From: Octopus sinensis
Taxonomy: Eukaryota
Length of the DNA: 64,000 bases
Direction: 5' to 3'
NCBI RefSeq assembly: GCF_006345805.1
Contig: NC_043000.1
Coordinates: 67,518,001-67,582,000 of the forward strand
Below the pieces are notes generated by a model. The model was not told where the DNA came from. It saw only the letters and a program-made list of their open reading frames with translations, and did no database searches. Position numbers and translations under genes: made by a program. Positions 12,456 to 64,000 of this stretch are shown piece by piece (the stretch's first letter is position 1; the number at the start of each line of letters is the position of its first letter).

Positions 12456-13013
12456 TACCCACTTTTCATCTTCGATCTCATTGTTGTTTACATTAGGCGT
12501 ACTCGGATGCGAAACGTCGTAACAAATCAGTGCTGGCTATAATTTCTATAGAAAATCTAAAGAGATAATCTTAGCAAATAGATTAGTATAAGTCCTGTTG
12601 GTTGTAATATAATGTTTATACACAGCTATATGTTACACTCTGTTGGCGTAACATATAGCTGTGAGTACCCTAAGTGATACAAGTTTCGAGCTGGTTGATG
12701 TACGATTGCGGTGGTTGTACAGTTTTGGTGTGAGTGCGAATAGGATATCATCTATGTGAGTTTGTGTCTATGTGTGAAGAGGTGTAGTAATTTTTTGTTG
12801 GTGCAATTTAACATAGTTGATAAGCCTACCTATCTCTATGACACTCCCGTGAAGAAAATACAACTACTAGATGTATATGTGCAAGGCAGGAGATTAGTGA
12901 GATAAGATCTAGTTTAATTAACATTTTGTATTTTAAGATGTATCATAATATATATATAATAATAATAGGGAATATTATATATTATATTGCTATATATATA
13001 TATATATGTGTGT

Positions 13014-13074
<61 letters not shown>

Positions 13075-13271
13075 CGTGTATTTTCCCTTGTTAACAATTA
13101 ACACGGAAAAAATAGATAAATAGTTACCAGGGTAGCAAAACATCACAGAAGTAAAAAGGTTGTAACTCCTTATTTTTAAAGGTAGAAACTTCGGGTTTAC
13201 GTGACATTTTTTGTATAATATATATAAATAAAGAAATGGAGTTAAACGTAGGTGTTATTCAAATTCTTTTA

Positions 13272-13358
13272 CTTCCGACACATGTTTCGAAGATAACGCT
13301 AATATTATTCCGAAGGAATAAAATGGTGTAAAACAATGTAATCTTCTCTTCAGGGAAG
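13272..13358 (-). ncRNA. Type-I hammerhead ribozyme with extended stem II
   Basis: Minus strand: CTTCC-CTGAAGA-GAAGAT..(TTATTCC-TTC-GGAATAA)..ATCTTC-GAAA-CATGTG-TC-GGAAG. All core nucleotides are intact, with a GUC cleavage triplet. Confidence 0.85.
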
Positions 13359-13399
13359 TGAAGAAATGATACTCGCCAATAAGACATTTTAACAGAAAA

Positions 13400-13790
13400 T
13401 GATGGATATGTATAGTGATTAACTGAACGCTATTAATAACGTCAGAGGTAGCCTATAGAAAGAGGAGGGATAAAGTATTTTAGGTACTTTGTGCATAAGT
13501 GGATAGCAGAAAATGAAGTCGATAATTTTGTTTATATCATTGTGGAAGTTAATAGTATGTGTTTCGGGTAGCTTTGTCGGTAAAGGCTTCATGCATTTTC
13601 ATTTTTTACTTTCTCTTTATCACAGGTTTTGTTGACACTCCTGGAACTTTCTGTGCGTAGCGGGTTTACTACCTGCAGCCTACGGTTCCATGCTATTCGT
13701 TCTTTTCAGCTGTCTAATACTTTCCTGTTTATTATGGCCGTGCAAAGGGGGCAATCCTTTTGCAGCAGTTCTTCTGGGTGCTCTATTCCA
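13400..13790 (-). mobile_element. Decayed Penelope-like GIY-YIG region upstream of the hammerhead
   Basis: Minus strand has CPL.G and F....KH..NFHND.NK.ST remnants, followed by a hammerhead as in Penelope pseudo-LTRs. Confidence 0.45.
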
Positions 13791-25554: not shown

Positions 25555-25788
25555 TTATTTCTTTATTGCCCACAAGGGGATAAACACAGAGGGGACAAAC
25601 AAGAACAGACAAAGGGATTAAGTTGATTATATCGACCCCAGTGCGTAACTGGTACTTAATTTATCGACCCCGAAACGATGAAAGGCAACGTCGACCTCGG
25701 CGGAATTTGAACTCAGAATGTAACGGCAGACGAAGTACCGCTAAGCACTTCACCCGGCGTGCTAACGTTTCTGCCAGCTCGCCGCCTT
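25555..25788 (-). mobile_element. SINE family C, well-preserved copy
   Basis: Reverse complement of the 14762 copy from head to 3' tail. Confidence 0.9.
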
Positions 25789-25843
25789 ATATATTTATAT
25801 GTTTATATATGTATATATGTATGTGCAATGAAATATAAATATG

Positions 25844-25864
<21 letters not shown>

Positions 25865-25879
<15 letters not shown>

Positions 25880-26538
25880 ATATATGCATACATTCTATAT
25901 ACATGCATACACATAATACATACATACATACATATATAATATATGAATGAGCGTGTTCGTCCTTGCGTCTTTGTGCACGTGAATGTGTGTGATAATGTCC
26001 GTTAAAGTATGTCTGTTTACATTTATTGATGTAATCCGGTATGTCAAATTGGTTCATTCTATGTTAAAAATCAAACTTGGTGAATCGGTAAATACAGATC
26101 GATTTGTTAAAACTTTCCTGTTCTCTCTAAGCGAATACATAGGCTCAGACATACAAAGACACGCGCGCGTGCATACACACAGACACCCACTCACTCACTC
26201 ACTCACTACGCACACACACACATGCAGAGTGTATGTGAATTTTGTTTTTATAAATGCGCATCGCTATGTTTTCTTTTTTTATTTGTTAATGCACATGAGC
26301 GTTGAGTTTTTATTTTGTCCTTGTGGCAAAATAAAGACTTTATTCGTGTATTTACTTCAATTAATTCTTTGAATTCGGCACGTAAAGTTATGACTTGGGT
26401 GTTCAGGTTTACACATGCAGGAACATTGTCAGCAAGGAACAAAGATGCAGACAAAGAATAGTTGGAAAAATTAAACTTTGTATCCTTTTATACATACATA
26501 CGTGATATACATATATATGCATACATACATACATATAT

Positions 26539-26571
<33 letters not shown>

Positions 26572-26591
26572 CTATATATATATATATATAT

Positions 26592-26626
<35 letters not shown>

Positions 26627-27437
26627 AATATACATACACACATATGTATATGCACATATATATATAAGTATATGTATGTATATATATGTATATATATATA
26701 TGTGTGTGTGTGTATATGTATGTATAAATATATATATATATATTATATATATATTATATATATATATATATATATATGCATACATTCTATATACATGCAT
26801 ACACATAATACATACATACATACATATATAATATATGAATGAGCGTGTTCGTCCTTGCGTCTTTGTGCACGTGAATGTGTGTGATAATGTCCGTTAAAGT
26901 ATGTCTGTTTACATTTATTGATGTAATCCGGTATGTCAAATTGGTTCATTCTATGTTAAAAATCAAACTTGGTGAATCGGTAAATACAGATCGATTTGTT
27001 AAAACTTTCCTGTTCTCTCTAAGCGAATACATAGGCTCAGACATACAAAGACACGCGCGCGTGCATACACACAGACACCCACTCACTCACTCACTCACTA
27101 CGCACACACACACATGCAGAGTGTATGTGAATTTTGTTTTTATAAATGCGCATCGCTATGTTTTCTTTTTTTATTTGTTAATGCACATGAGCGTTGAGTT
27201 TTTATTTTGTCCTTGTGGCAAAATAAAGACTTTATTCGTGTATTTACTTCAATTAATTCTTTGAATTCGGCACGTAAAGTTATGACTTGGGTGTTCAGGT
27301 TTACACATGCAGGAACATTGTCAGCAAGGAACAAAGATGCAGACAAAGAATAGTTGGAAAAATTAAACTTTGTATCCTTTTATACATACATACGTGATAT
27401 ACATATATATGCATACATACATACATACATATATATA

Positions 27438-27521
<84 letters not shown>

Positions 27522-27617
27522 AATATACATACACACATATGTATATGCACATATATATATAAGTATATGTATGTATATATATATGTATATATATATGTGT
27601 GTGTGTGTATATGTATG

Positions 27618-27640
<23 letters not shown>
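25865..27640. repeat. Near-identical tandem duplication, period 892 bp
   Basis: ORFs 25983-26372 and 26875-27264 are identical, as are 26248-26454 and 27140-27346; visible differences are confined to the TA tracts. Confidence 0.95.
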
Positions 27641-27659
<19 letters not shown>

Positions 27660-27665
27660 TGTATG

Positions 27666-27710
<45 letters not shown>

Positions 27711-27754: not shown

Positions 27755-28670
27755 GTGTTTGCCGACCGGTTTTGCTTTCGCTAATCATGGCATTGAAGTT
27801 ATCATAATTTCGTATTTTCTGAAGAAGATTTTAGTCCAAGTTGTGAAATGAATCACCAGGTAGAAAAATATTAGGGGAGTTAATCGGTGAACGTTATTAT
27901 TCGGGACAGGAGAGGCAATTGCTTGTTTTGGGGGAGGGGATGAATAACTGTCCAAAAATTCAAAAGCAAGCTAAAGTAGTGAAATGAAATATTTACTGTG
28001 ATGGGTATGTGAACGTGAATTGTGTACTGAGACCAAAATTGGTTATGCGTTCATATTGAAGAGTGTTCTGTATTTTTCGATGAATGAATTTTCTTTATTT
28101 AAACTTTCTTGTACAAAAATTCTTCATGGTGCTGGTAGATGGAGAAAACTGTGATGTCTGGTTGAACATCTCTGTATGTGTCCTGCAAAGGAATCTGTAT
28201 GTACTGTGGGAAATGGATATGTTCCTTATGTAGTATGGTTCTCCTTCTAAGTGCCCTACTTGTCTGTACTATATAGTTATGTCTACAACCTGAACAAGTT
28301 ATAAGTGAAGTTGGTTTTAATTGTGAACATGTCTCCTTGTTTGAATAGGAATTCTGAGCCTTCCAACAGGTTGGAGCATGTTCAACAGTTTGGGCGTCCA
28401 CATTTTTTAACCATTAGTTTCGTGGCTGCTTTGTAAAGCTTTGCATTTGTCAGAAGTCTTTTCAGCGATTTGGGTTGCTTTTTGCATTTAAAAAATTTGT
28501 TTATTTTCGGATCCCTAGTGAGCATAGGTAGATATTGTATAATAGTAATGTATACCTCACTGTTTCTAGGGCTGTGAGTTGATATGTACATTAATTTGAG
28601 AAGTGGTGTGGTGTTACATTTTGTTTCTCTTGGTGATTTAATGTATAATTTCTTCGCACGTTTAATTCCA
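27755..28670 (-). mobile_element. Penelope-like element 3' part (Cys linker, GIY-YIG endonuclease, tail), frameshifted
   Basis: KKCGRPNC..C linker, then ITCSGCRHNYIVQTS.ALRRRTILHKEHI. Confidence 0.85.
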
Positions 28671-48452: not shown

Positions 48453-49421
48453 TTCTCTTAATAAAACAGATCGTTTCTGGAACCTGGCCTGCTACAATAA
48501 TTTTAAATTACTCAATATACTTCTTTCTGTTTGCATACAACTTGTTTAAAAGTTTTATTTTCTGTAAAGTATGGACAACCCGTCTGATAATATAAAATAT
48601 TGTAACTAAATGAAAGATAAAACAATTTCAGTTATGCGTAAAACATTTATATGATCTAGTTTGCTTATTGTTGTTGTTAATTTGTTGAATTCTTCCAATG
48701 AAGAAGGTGTTGGTATCTAATTAAGAAACTAAACTCCATCGTTAGAATTTAGAAAGTAGGAAAGAGTTCCATACTGAAATTTATAAAAGTCTTCATATTG
48801 TACCTTGTCCACTTACCTATTAAGTTTTCAGAATCCTAATGATTACAGATACGCATGTAAATTTATAACAAGGTAGAGAAGTATGTTTCAACGGTGTCGT
48901 TCATAGATTCTTGTCGCCAGTTTTGAATGAATATACATATATATACGATGGGTTACTTTCATTTTCTATCTCCCAAATCCACTCACGAGGTTTCGGTGGG
49001 CCTGAGACTATAATAGAGAACGCCAACCCATGGTGTCACGCAGTGGGACTGGACCAAGAATTATGTGGTTGGGAAGCAAGCTTCTTTATTTCATCAAATT
49101 TGCCATAAGGGCATTACATAGATAGAAGCAAATGCGGGGTGGACAACAACACAAATGATGAGCAAAATAATGCTATTGATGAGGGAAGCAGACGACGCCC
49201 GCCGATCGATACTTCCCGAAAGCATTGTTCTTTTTTTCTCTTTTATAAAACCAATTGAGGTTATAAACCTCTTACTATAGTTCATTGGGACACACGGTCC
49301 TTTCAATAGAGGCACTAAGCCTCTTACATTTTTCACAAATGGGCTCCACGTCCTTACAAAATGAGGCACTAAGCCTCTTACCTTGTTTTATAACTCGAGG
49401 CATTAAAGCCTCTTACTTCCA

Positions 49422-50322
49422 TGCGTTGGACTCAATTTACAGATGGGCTGAAGACAATAATATGCAGTTTAATGCTGAGAAATTCCAAGCTCTGCGCTAC
49501 CAGTGCCCAAAACTGAATATAAAACTTACAGGGTACACTGGCCCATCGGGAATTACAATGCCAGAGCCTAAATAAGTGCGGAAACTGTGTATCAACATGA
49601 GTGATGATACGTTTTTCCAAGTACACATTACCAGGATGGCGACAAAGTGCAGGCGACTGGCTGGCTGGATCCTAAGAACCTTCAGAATCAGAGAGAAGGA
49701 AACCGTGATGATCCTCTGAAGGACATTCGTCCTCAGCCGCCTGGACTACTTCTCCCAGCTATGGTCAACCCACAGTGCAAAATTAATAGCGGACCTTGAA
49801 GTAATCCAGCGAAGCTTCACAAAGATCGTCTCATTGCAACAGCTCAGCTACTGGGAAAGGTTGAAACAGCTAAGACGCCCTGCAACGTAGGCGGGAGAGA
49901 TATGCAGTGATATACATCTGGAAGATCCTGGAAGAGATTGTGCCAAATTTTAGCATTGAAAGCTACACAAATGCCAGAAAGGGTCGTCACTGCACAGTGC
50001 CAAAGATCTCAGCAATGCCATCGCGCTTCAAGACCAGTTACTGCAACAGCCTGGGTTTCAGGGGGCCTACAGCTTTTTAATATTCTTCCAAAGAGCCTAA
50101 GGTACCAACACAAAGTAGATGTAGGTGTTTTCAAATCAAAACTGGATCGCTTCCTGTCGAGAGTCCCAGATAAACCTACTTCGCGGCGGGAGGTGCAAAT
50201 GAGAGTAGCGACATCAAACTCACTTATTCACCAAGTGCCACATATCAGAGGAGAGTCTCAATAATAACAGTGTAGCAAAACGGCGTTGCCCTAGCATGGC
50301 CACAGCTTTCAGCTGAAACTGA
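49422..50322 (+). mobile_element. 5'-truncated CR1/L2-group LINE (RT C-terminus and 3' end), with stops and frameshifts
   Basis: ALDSIYRWAEDNNMQFNAEKFQALRY, GWILRTF, FVLSRLDYFSQLW, LSYWERLKQL, LQRRRERYAVIYIWKIL and FKSKLDRFLSRVPD. Confidence 0.9.
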
Positions 50323-50694
50323 TTCTCTAAGAATCCTCTTGTAAACACACTTATAGAGAGATCGTACAAATGTAAACACTGGCAGAAACATACATTTTAC
50401 TCATATAGGTGATTTCGCCAGTCATTATAGTTTGAACAATTAGTTTAACTTGCACTTCACTTCAATAGAGGAATCTTTTCCTAAGCCTTTGAACATTCTT
50501 TTAATCAACGTATCACTTCCCCACCCTATTTGTTCCCTACTTATTATCCCTGTAACCCTTCTCTTCTCACTATCTGCCTTTGACGTCAACTCTACTAACG
50601 GTTTTTTTAAATACTTAATAACGTTCTGTTTATCAGGTAGGCAGTCATCATAATTGTTATAATGTCTTGTTGTTGAGAGAAGCTCTCTTTCTTT

Positions 50695-50776
50695 CTTTCC
50701 TGATGAGAAGATTGCATCTTACATCGTTTATTCCTTTGGAATAAAACCATGTTGTCTTCGAAACATATGTCGAAAG
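50695..50776 (+). ncRNA. Type-I hammerhead ribozyme with extended stem II
   Basis: CTTTC-CTGATGA-GAAGA..(TTATTCC-TTT-GGAATAA)..TCTTC-GAAA-CATATG-TC-GAAAG; predicted cleavage after C50771. Confidence 0.85.
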
Positions 50777-50813
50777 TAAAGGAATTTTATTAACATCTTC
50801 GTTCAACTCCATT

Positions 50814-50885
<72 letters not shown>

Positions 50886-58338: not shown

Positions 58339-58375
<37 letters not shown>

Positions 58376-58551
58376 CATATATACGACAGGCTTCTTTCAG
58401 TTTCCGTCTACCAAATCTACTCACAAGGCATTGGTCGGCCCGGGGCTATAGCAGAAGACATTTGCCCAAGATGCCACGCAGTGGGACTGAACCCAGAACC
58501 ATGTGGTTGGTTAGCAAGCTACTTACCACACAGCCACTCCTGCGCCACTCC

Positions 58552-58552
<1 letters not shown>
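58140..58552 (-). mobile_element. CORE-type tRNA-derived SINE family A, full length
   Basis: Head GGAGTGGCTGTGTGGTAAG, B-box GGGTTCAGTCCC, core GTGGCATCTTGGGCAAATGTCTT, internal (TA)(TG) tract and AAAAGAGTA-repeat tail. Confidence 0.9.
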
Positions 58553-58587
<35 letters not shown>

Positions 58588-58597
58588 ATATACATAT

Positions 58598-58766
58598 ATA
58601 CGACAGGCTTCTTTCAGTTTCCGTCTACCAAATCTACTCACAAGGCATTGGTCGGCCCGGGGCTATAGCAGAAGACATTTGCCCAAGATGCCACGCAGTG
58701 GGACTGAACCCAGAACCATGTGGTTGGTTAGCAAGCTACTTACCACACAGCCACTCCTGCGCCACT

Positions 58767-58770
<4 letters not shown>
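58598..58770 (-). repeat. Identical tandem duplicate of the SINE A 5' half (period 217 bp)
   Basis: 58381-58552 recurs base for base at 58598-58769. Confidence 0.9.
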
Positions 58771-58814
<44 letters not shown>

Positions 58815-59216: not shown

Positions 59217-60688
59217 CAGTAACTTGCAAAAGTCTAAACCCCACCTCCAGATATTATACTGTGTTATCAGGTAGTTTGTCATTGATGTATACAATCCAAA
59301 ACAATCAAAAGTGACATGTGCGTTCTACCATAACAAACAAACTTGGCCAATCTTATTTTGGTGATTTAACTGCCTACAAAATCATTCGCCACATGGTTTT
59401 TTGCTATGTTGGTCTTTGGACTCTGACTGTAAACACAAGGTGTCAAACTCGGGAAAGAAAATGGGCAAGCCTCTCTCTCAGGAACTTAAAAACCTTATTA
59501 TTCAAAAGTACAATGAAAATAATAGCTATAAGAAGATTGCAAAAACTTTAGAAGTTCCCTTAAGCACTGTTAAAACTGTAGTTAAGAAGTGGTTAGTGCA
59601 AAAAACAACTGCTACTCGACCAAGATCTGGGGGACCGAGCAAACTTACCAGAAGAGCAAAGTCAAAACTGGTCCAAGAGGCAACCTCCAACCCTAGTGCA
59701 ACACTGGAAGACTTGAAAGCTTCAGTTTCCAGCACTGTAACAGATGTCCATGCATCTACAATTTCCAGAGTATTGCACCGGTCTGGCCTGCAAGGGAGGG
59801 TAGCTAGAAAAAAAGCCCCTTCTGAAGCCTATACACAAGCAAGCTAGGCTAAACTTTGCCAAAAGTCACATTAATGATTCCATGACCATGTGGCGAAAGA
59901 TTTTGTGGTCAGATGAGACCAAAGTCGAGTTATTTGGAAAAAATACGAAACGCTACGTTTGGCGGAAAAAAGACACTGCTCATCAACCTCGTTACACTGT
60001 AAAGCACGGCGGTGGCTCGATCATGCTTTGGGGTTGTTTTTCAGCTACAGGGCCTGGAGAGTTGGTAACCATCCAAGGTATCATGGACAGTATAAAGTAC
60101 CAAGAAATATTGGAGGCAAATCTGCTGAAGTCTGCTAGAGCTCTGCGCTTGGGTCGCAATGTCAAGTTTCAACAAGATAACGACCCCAAGTATGTGTCAA
60201 AAAGCACTAAAGCTTTGTTTGCTAGCAAGAAAATCAGTTTTAGAGTGGCCCAGCCAGTCTCCAAGCTTCAATCCTATAGAAAATCTATGGCGAGATTTAA
60301 AGCTGGCTGTGCACCGACGTTCCCCATCCAATCCGACACAGGTCGAGAAACTCTGCCATGAAGAATGGCGAAAACTGTCAGCAGACCACTGCAGCAAGCT
60401 CCTGGAGGGCTACCCGAGGCGTCTGCAGGCTGTAATTGACGCAGCAGGATCATCCACAAAGTATTAGCTGAAGACATTCCAAAGGAAGTGACTTTTGAAA
60501 AGAGATTTTTCAAAATTATCTTAAGAATCAGCTTTAAAATTTTCAAATGTATTTTGTGTATTAAATAAAAGTGTGATAGATCTGCTTATTAAAACAAATT
60601 ATTGGAGTTTAAAATATTAATTGTTCCTATCAAAATAAACAAAATACATCCAGTTTCCGAGTGGGGTGTAGACTTTTGCAAGGCACTG
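59217..60688 (+). mobile_element. Full-length Tc1 (DD34E) transposon, 1472 bp
   Basis: TA-flanked TIRs CAGTAACTTGCAAAAGTCTAAACCCCAC and (rc) CAGTGCCTTGCAAAAGTCTACACCCCAC enclose a transposase. Confidence 0.95.
59461..60467 (+). pseudogene. Tc1 transposase with two single-base frameshifts
   Basis: MGKPLSQELK HTH region, WSDETK, QQDNDPK and [15 protein letters not shown], with 34 residues between D and E after repair. Frameshifts lie at the A-run ~59810 and at ~60238. Confidence 0.95.
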
Positions 60689-63463: not shown

Positions 63464-64000
63464 AGGAAGCTTATAAGTTCGAAAGGGAACTAGACATTAA
63501 CCTTGAATCAGATGAAGAGCCGGAAACCACTGCTACCAAGCAAGCAAAGCGAATCAAGCAGACTGCAAAAAAGAACGGGCAGAATCAAATTGAGAGGCGG
63601 TGGAGCCAGAAGCCCCTGCATGGACAATATATTCTCCGAAGCCAAAATGCTGATGTAGACCAAGCAACAACCCATCAGTGGCTGAAGAGTTCTGGATTGA
63701 AAGCAGAGACTGAAGGCTTCATACTGGCAGCACAAGATCAAAGCTTGTTTACCAGAAATTACCAGGCTAACGTTCTCCGAAACGGTACTGACCCTGAATG
63801 CAGATTCTGCGACACATTTGACGAAACAATAGACCATCTCGTTTCGGGATGTCCTGTGCTGACACCAAACGAATACAAAAATCGCCACGATAGGGTAGGA
63901 CAGTATATACATTGGAAGATATGTAAACACTACAAATTCGGCACTCCTGCTAACTGGTATGAACACCATCCTCAGCCAGTTGTTGAAGGTAAAAATGTCA
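63464..64000 (+). mobile_element. Young 5'-truncated R4/Dong-type retrotransposon, runs off the window
   Basis: Open frame WSQKPLHGQY..WLKSSGLKAETEGFILAAQDQ..CRFCDTFDETIDHLVSGC (CCHC)..RHDRVGQYIHWKICK. Confidence 0.92.

Follow-up and report, generated by a model that had tools for sequence, protein, structure and literature searches.

Hammerhead ribozymes are already known to accompany Penelope-like elements (PLEs), and their role in these elements has been called unclear (PMC8557442). The closest described systems are found in the Hydra clade, including Hydra-1_Obim (Craig et al. 2021, PMC8557442), whose members share with the lineage described here a type I hammerhead near the 3' end, a self-complementary stem III of 3-4 bp and C, A or U at the cut site, as well as a single ORF encoding a reverse transcriptase (RT) together with a GIY-YIG endonuclease at its C-terminus, the DKT and CxxC-E-N-CxH motifs and (TA)n targets. 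The minimal hammerheads described from PLEs in metazoans (Cervera and De la Pena 2014, PMC4209133) are similar in their pLTR location, their palindromic stem III, the pairing of which underlies a proposed dimer model, the presence of opposite-strand motifs 100-700 bp apart and the existence of consensus families with compensatory changes. Poseidon from Anolis carolinensis (Frangieh et al. 2024, PMC11167929) likewise shows two RT starts downstream of the hammerhead, resulting in an optional tail, together with AT-rich targets and ends that do not fall at the cut site. However, it belongs to another clade, its tail measures 30-40 bp compared with about 160 nt here, and its hammerhead overlaps the ORF start whereas the motif described here lies 207-680 nt after the stop. 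Long loops are given for two spike-moss elements (PMC8557442 File S2), with a loop 2 of about 53 nt in all for PLE-X1_sMoe; PLE-X1 are, however, EN-less, Chlamys-related rDNA elements of unrelated sequence, and the available part of that source marks their single motifs as deviating and shows no covariation for them. Finally, non-LTR retrozymes (PMC7229834; bioRxiv 10.64898/2026.07.22.740005) also combine a type I hammerhead with a link to PLEs but, as far as described in the accessible text, are non-coding short tandem repeats, while the present lineage is coding and dispersed.

In this lineage, the predicted stem II exceeds that of published relatives two- to fivefold in length. It measures 53-59 nt, compared with 10-24 nt for stem II plus loop across 26 Hydra-clade rows and 22 nt in octopus Hydra-1_Obim (PMC8557442 File S2). 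The hammerheads in the available part of PMC4209133 have a helix II of 7-8 bp at most without a multi-helix arm, and their stem II begins with an additional 5' nucleotide that this lineage lacks. Hydra-1_Obim represents a different family, its RT being only about a third identical as judged by eye. The core flanks of the motif were not found in the accessible supplement text of PMC8557442 and no paper on a long-armed hammerhead in PLEs was found in the full-text literature, as far as it is accessible; Repbase, Dfam and the supplements of PMC4209133 and PMC13282606 may hold the family. The present analysis adds a two-armed lineage, covariation in the palindrome, a terminal branch carrying U4C and the loss of a linker from the element protein.

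The window, i.e. the entire 64,000-nt stretch of Octopus sinensis DNA that was analyzed, contains a complete type I hammerhead core on the minus strand at 13272-13358 (copy 1) and a partner starting at 50695 (copy 2), as an earlier note had claimed. The core letters of both copies were read directly, as was the TTATTCC-TTY-GGAATAA hairpin common to them (Table 1). Type I core features are present, namely CUGANGA, GAAA, A15.1-U16.1 and an NUH site, and what had been described as an insert of about 45 nt corresponds to 46 nt in copy 1 and 41 nt in copy 2 beyond the 6-bp basal helix. The statement that the flanks of the two copies diverge did not hold: an alignment of 218 columns that extends into the flanks gave 75%, and these are homologous because both copies represent ends of one element lineage. 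A generic hammerhead scan of the window returned four candidates, with a stem I of 5-6 bp plus a stem II of 6 bp in copies 1 and 2 only; a candidate from the loose scan at 63682 (+), located in an apparent LINE coding end (window 63600-63900), has weak stems and was taken as chance. A model built from the family found no third strong copy in the window (next match, 20.6 bits). Rfam, searched with the whole window at E up to 1, matched neither copy and returned microsatellite look-alikes only, and a narrow scan with Hammerhead_1 (RF00163), whose core and topology are as here, left copy 1 unmatched at E up to 10, below the gathering threshold. As a positive control, RF00163 did recognize another motif of this genome, which is short-armed but shares the flanks (34.8 bits).

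Table 1. Positions of the hammerhead copies, their parts and the element ends carrying them (window coordinates).
Feature	Position	Strand	Details
Copy 1 stem I, 5' strand, ACTTCC	13354..13359	-	CTTCC = 13358-13354
Copy 1 catalytic box CUGAAGA	13347..13353	-	DNA letters CTGAAGA
Copy 1 stem II, 58 nt	13289..13346	-	~11-bp basal helix with internal mismatch, 5' asymmetric loop, apical hairpin
Copy 1 apical hairpin TTATTCC-TTC-GGAATAA	13305..13321	-	conserved mostly by identity
Copy 1 GAAA box, near-palindromic stem III ACAUGUGU and GUC site	13277..13288	-	GAA 13288-13286, then ACATGTGT 13285-13278, then C17 at 13277; predicted cut between 13277 and 13276
Copy 1 stem I, 3' strand, GGAAGT	13271..13276	-	GGAAG = 13276-13272
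Copy 1 element, 5'-truncated 3' end, subfamily A	13073..13477	-	3' UTR, hammerhead and read-through tail; 405 bp
Optional tail of copy 1	13073..13233	-	read-through into the next unit's start; aligns to L145 5' UTR
Dinucleotide microsatellite	13007..13079		at 3' end of copy 1 insertion
Copy 2 hammerhead	50695..50776	+	CTTTC 50695-50699, CTGATGA 50700-50706, 53-nt stem II, ACATATGT, C 50771, GAAAG 50772-50776; perfect palindrome ACAUAUGU
Copy 2 element, subfamily B	50323..50824	+	C-terminal part of the endonuclease, 3' UTR and hammerhead, with a short end at (TA)/(TG)n

Copy 1 is a decaying fragment of the 3' end of a protein-coding Penelope-like retrotransposon. The element end carrying it aligns at 85% over 433 columns to one genomic locus (L021) and at 79.6% over 367 to a locus with an intact ORF (L145); it has no coding part, shows a 28-nt internal deletion upstream of the hammerhead, and its optional tail stops about 204 nt beyond the cut site. 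Four private changes weaken its stem II to -8.9 compared with -12.3 kcal/mol; the single-strand fold of the whole copy is weakly better than shuffles (z -1.6) and that of stem II alone reaches z -2.4. Copy 2 matches another locus (L033) at 92.8% over 502 and keeps the last 29 codons of the ORF (50323-50409, 76% to residues 747-775 by tblastn). In longer genomic copies an RT and GIY-YIG coding end lies upstream of the motif, which bears out the suggested assignment to a Penelope-like element. Structural selection, also invoked in the earlier note, applies to the source elements and not to copy 1 with its four weakening changes.

Several other repeats were observed in the window. A LINE RT C-terminal remnant is located immediately upstream of copy 2 (49267-50264, +), and a degenerate GIY-YIG-like frame with a C-x-x-C linker at 28099-28413 (-) apparently belongs to another Penelope-like family. 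Further, the window contains a tandem duplication of about 900 bp with 96% identity (25788-27698), a 217-bp unit repeated at 58351-58810 and broken transposase reading frames with WSDETK and DND-like motifs (59365-60467, +), which we take to be of the Tc1/mariner type.

The genome is 2.72 Gb in size and rich in microsatellites. The genomic copies whose collection the earlier note had proposed could be gathered in large number: the exact-core pattern CTGAWGAG N40-65 CGAAACATRTGTCG matched 1718 + 1694 = 3,412 times while the reversed control gave 0, so that a chance occurrence of the motif can be dismissed; the count is a lower bound because families with a GUA site fall outside the pattern. With a spacer of 6-36 instead, only 42 matches were found, about 10 of which represent a separate short-armed family and the rest mostly scattered deletions. 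This short-armed family (L188:1497-1538, L222, L223) has the same core flanks, comprises about 10 exact copies and matches RF00163; one of its loci (L222) shows a weak match to a Hydra-type endonuclease. Copy 1 as a genome query gave 3,507 candidates, of which 40 were scored, and 30 loci were read. These share a common 3' end and have variable 5' ends, with the longer ones reaching a GIY-YIG endonuclease and a YRDD RT. Among 202 distinct motif copies, 95 have an endonuclease coding end within 1.3 kb upstream and 107 have no such match.

Clustering resulted in 13 subfamilies, the members of which differ on average by between 0.016 (A0) and about 0.09; both subfamilies represented in the window, A and B, are at 0.069. 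Trees based on endonuclease DNA (31 rows) and protein (20 rows, quick method) recovered one clade with two arms, one a ladder of F, A2, A, A1 and A0 and the other containing C, D2, E and Z, with D1 and B in between. The core is intact in 24/30 (A) and 19/30 (B) BLAST-picked copies. Core differences amount to 6/390 compared with 72/2,319 in the flanks for A, and to 9/386 compared with 106/2,432 for B. Selection on single copies was rejected, the core being mutated about half as much as the flanks and decay in A being fastest at CpG sites; selection acts on the source elements. A second hammerhead-bearing repeat was also encountered, referred to as family K (L115, L189-L203): an AT-rich repeat of unrelated sequence lying between (TA)n runs, with 1,958 candidates, a type I hammerhead, a 62-nt rod-like stem II and the ACACGUGU palindrome. 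No ORF match was found for family K, and its identity with the published Naiad_Ovul end was ruled out on comparison.

The unusual length of the structured stem II claimed earlier is a property of the entire lineage, with 53-59 nt in all 13 subfamilies and 52-59 nt in 200/202 copies, in a search that admitted about 43-65 nt. In the layout common to the subfamilies, a basal helix of about 11 pairs, interrupted by an internal mismatch, is followed by an asymmetric loop and then by the apical hairpin, and the predicted pairing pattern is conserved across the lineage. Stem II alone beats shuffles in 23/24 representatives (z -0.9 to -4.9), the exception being one decayed copy (+1.6). Covariation was assessed in 22 hand-picked representatives, comprising the window copies, medoids and long-ORF loci, using a structure drawn by hand from the same, related sequences. 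Here, 90.3% of 545 cells are paired (stem I 97%, basal stem II 88%, stem III 100%), and 41 cells show double-sided change compared with 16.2 after shuffling, with 0/500 shuffles as high and slid controls at 2-12. An earlier set of 24 with more single decayed copies gave 83.1% paired and 46 compared with 23.0 double-change cells. However, the count of covarying pairs did not exceed shuffles in either set (9 vs 7.3, 103/500, for 22; 10 vs 9.9, 294/500, for 24). Because of this, and because the rows are related, the covariation in stems I and II provides support rather than proof.

Stem I pairs 1-5 are paired in 64/65 subfamily cells; when traced on the endonuclease tree, pair 2 changes from UA to CG and then reverts to UA. 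Pair 5 forms a CG/UG/UA series. The stem I change between the two window copies is indeed compensatory, being fixed between subfamilies and not copy noise. In the basal helix of stem II, 6 of the 11 pairs show changes on both sides across representatives, including pair 6 (UA/UG/CG) and pair 5 (AU/GU/GC), while both sides of pairs 7 and 8 are changed in Z. Covariation is thus located in the palindrome, in stem I and in the basal part of stem II. The apical hairpin stressed in the earlier note is instead kept mainly by identity: its inner 5 pairs show no double-sided change in the 22 representatives, and its register and loop size shift between subfamilies. No conserved pseudoknot partner was found for the asymmetric loop. 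Stems I and II, whose loops form a tertiary contact in extended hammerheads, each have an internal loop after 5-6 bp. It should be noted that unconstrained RNAalifold chose a different, non-hammerhead fold and that the hammerhead fold of single copies lies 0.7-7.7 kcal/mol above the minimum. Long arm and core are kept on both arms of the lineage, which are separated by about 0.9 substitutions per site at the protein level.

As their stem III octamer, 12 of the 22 representatives have ACAUAUGU, 8 have ACAUGUGU and 2 have ACACGUGU, so that the centre pair of the palindrome is UA (12), UG (8) or CG (2) and unpaired in 0/22. To close, stem III needs either a 2-nt loop or a second copy. Since its two central bases are unable to pair with each other inside a single strand, their UA-UG-CG series points to pairing between two copies, as in the dimer model of PMC4209133; the succession ACAUAUGU to ACAUGUGU to ACACGUGU fits two-copy pairing as predicted. 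A 2017 paper reportedly described dimeric PLE hammerheads. Modelling placed a double hammerhead 9.6-10.6 kcal/mol lower than two open monomers, though still higher than the dimer minimum. Cutting by the motif probably requires the pairing of two copies, and the source elements would probably be competent for cleavage as a dimer.

The element is almost certainly Penelope-like and closest to the Hydra clade. Two loci that are 99.8% identical (L144, L145) contain an open ORF of 775 residues and, as in loci of the Z arm, a single ORF encodes the RT followed by the C-terminal GIY-YIG endonuclease. Pfam gave a weak GIY-YIG match (E 0.003) on 1/7 pieces and none on the full ORF, and Pfam and PDB sequence searches gave the ORF no name. 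Among 7,992 scored candidates, 87 homologues with 26-40% identity were found, one being an argonaut protein. The ORF and 11 aligned homologues have in common RW, DKT, GLYRDD and CxxC-E-N-CxH, which characterize the Hydra clade (PMC8557442). DKT replaces DKG, as SDKT, in L145 and the other ORFs reaching this region, and the endonuclease cysteines (CLLC-NSEL-LVN-CKHW) fit CxxC/CxH flanking E and N. At the N-terminal RWK motif, the four ORFs that extend this far read RIRWL, RW being retained and K replaced (RWL for RWK). The CxCX5C linker, which precedes the endonuclease, is absent at its position in 11/11 lineage ORFs while present in 8/9 outside homologues. A conserved cysteine-free stretch, SE.NPNR..F.S.NS.I, takes its place (L145:3210-5534, L232-L240); the segment ahead of it varies in length, is rich in asparagine and resembles a microsatellite. 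Because the linker is absent, the lineage is referred to as Hydra-like and not as a member of the clade. In the quick protein tree it forms one clade (support 100) beside unnamed proteins with full Hydra motifs. Unit lengths are 2,863 bp (A0) and 3,646 bp (Z); Hydra-clade units are generally below 3 kb. Targeting of (TA)n persists without the CxCX5C linker.

Insertion ends were assigned by motif classification in 197 of the 202 copies, the other 5 having too little flank. Of these, 194 reach a motif 40 nt beyond the cut site, and the remaining 3 likewise extend past this site; 109 end at about +39-62, while 85/197 run to about +199-212 and thus include the optional tail. A TA/AT/CA run, mostly (TA)n or (CA)n, then follows in all but few copies, and the end split is similar among 47 pattern-picked copies. 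A single genomic match ends at the cut site before TATA, in a search covering GUC families and a TATA target. Insertions therefore terminate beyond the cut site, hardly ever at the site itself, and the template would accordingly be uncut or rejoined RNA. For the anole element, internal RT start, an optional tail and protein-assisted cleavage that is not needed for insertion in vitro have been described (PMC11167929). The Penelope-like layout is seen directly: L145 has 783-bp direct repeats (pLTR) formed by partial tandem copies (unit 2,863 bp), an inverted 5'-truncated copy and the optional tail, and inverted pairs occur elsewhere too. In one run (X1), contig depth over the motif rises to 5,600-41,000, spanning the cut site; this is absent from 6 other runs, two of which come from the same study. 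The X1 contig (L224, L225; G000:C14:59875182) joins an inverted element piece to a flank which corresponds to an empty site in the genome analyzed here, and this junction likely reflects an insertion polymorphism. Being confined to a single run of 7 and tied to the inverted junction, the X1 depth was set aside as evidence.

The lineage has two young tips that differ in their core. In the youngest subfamily sampled, A0 (L144, L145, L154-L178), all 32 motifs read carry CCGAAGA (U4C), a G-U at 10.1-11.1 and a GUA site, and the genome holds at least 172 exact copies of this core; stem I, the palindrome and the NUH site are retained. A0 is nested within canonical relatives with strong support in the endonuclease DNA tree. 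The U4C change considerably lowers activity in vitro yet supports viroid infectivity (PMC3088659). A search starting from the other arm, with 150 scored, recovered numerous open frames between 800 and 920 residues in length, and 9/9 long-ORF loci read there have canonical CUGANGA. On this arm, Z (L232-L237) has many open ORFs of about 900 aa, including 899-aa ORFs that are 98-99% identical, keeps G10.1-C11.1, a 55-nt arm and the ACACGUGU palindrome, and has a weak stem I. With the canonical core in 12/13 subfamily majorities and a second young branch retaining it, core loss is confined to one tip; the putative catalytic core is thus conserved in general and relaxed on that tip. U4C as a loss of the ribozyme throughout the active lineage was rejected, the young Z branch being canonical.

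We propose, with a probability of about 0.68, that the motif is the hammerhead of the 3' repeat of a Hydra-related PLE, in which a conserved long arm may act as a protein handle and the predicted cutting by paired motifs likely trims tandem transcripts. The element, the tandem and inverted layout, the (TA)n targets, the two 3' ends and the covariation are read from sequence, and it is from these that we infer cutting, dimer formation, rejoining and the role of the arm. Tandem copies would be transcribed through, resulting in one transcript with two motifs, whose palindromic stems III could pair into a double hammerhead, perhaps with help from the ORF protein. Cutting would release a unit of 2.9-3.6 kb, which is possibly rejoined, tandem transcripts being trimmed to unit length in this way. 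The RT-endonuclease would then nick (TA)n DNA and copy from internal sites on uncut or rejoined RNA, while premature stops or inversion would leave pieces such as copy 1 that subsequently decay. The long arm may offer a handle for the element's own protein. That it serves as such a handle or as a folding brace, rather than being tolerated filler, is a tentative suggestion to which we give slightly less than even odds. A more specific version, in which stem II would be an RT-endonuclease-binding module that switches on the dimeric hammerhead in the assembled particle and arose where the zinc-binding linker was lost, appears improbable.

The strongest rival holds that the ribozyme is active and the long arm a tolerated insertion that needs only to fold back so that the core can close, with no role of its own. 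The distal part of stem II lies outside the hammerhead core, and its position, together with the variable register and loop size of the apical hairpin, agrees with this view. The different 62-nt rod of the sequence-unrelated family K suggests that long arms arise readily, and spike-moss PLE-X motifs with long loops (PMC8557442 File S2) point the same way. However, arm length is steady, in 200/202 copies as well as in Z, and the 42 short-spacer matches are mostly scattered deletions; an amplified short-arm subfamily was not seen, although deletions occur. We consider this explanation possible but somewhat doubtful.

According to a second rival, the fold persists because the element protein uses it as a structural signal, and cleavage is vestigial or dispensable. 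This would account for the near-identity and intact ORFs of A0 despite U4C in all its motifs and the considerably lower in vitro activity of that variant (PMC3088659), for insertions that do not end at the cut site, and for the normal in vitro insertion of catalytic mutants of the anole element (PMC11167929). On the other hand, the core is canonical in nearly all subfamily majorities and in all other-arm long-ORF loci read, young Z included, U4C still supports viroid infectivity (PMC3088659), and A0 keeps stem I, the palindrome and the NUH site, which together make this reading unlikely. A non-autonomous retrozyme-like short repeat spreading as small circles, suggested earlier as an option, is highly improbable: many copies are indeed short and non-coding (the 107/202 mentioned above) and run X1, guessed to be RNA, shows a contig depth of thousands over the motif only, but the 5' ends of short copies vary and grade into full, in part intact ORFs, the endonuclease end lies directly upstream in 95/202 copies, short head-to-tail arrays were seen in none of the loci read, and the depth spike occurs in 1/7 runs at one inverted junction.

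The lineage offers intact elements that were copied recently, some having a canonical core and others lacking it. The covariation of its palindrome backs the dimer model from sequence alone, and the long arm hides thousands of motifs from Rfam-type searches. In addition, (TA)n targeting is seen here without the cysteine linker that has been proposed to mediate it. If the reading as an RNA module is true, the comparison of Z (canonical) with A0 (U4C) would represent a natural experiment on the need of PLEs for the ribozyme.
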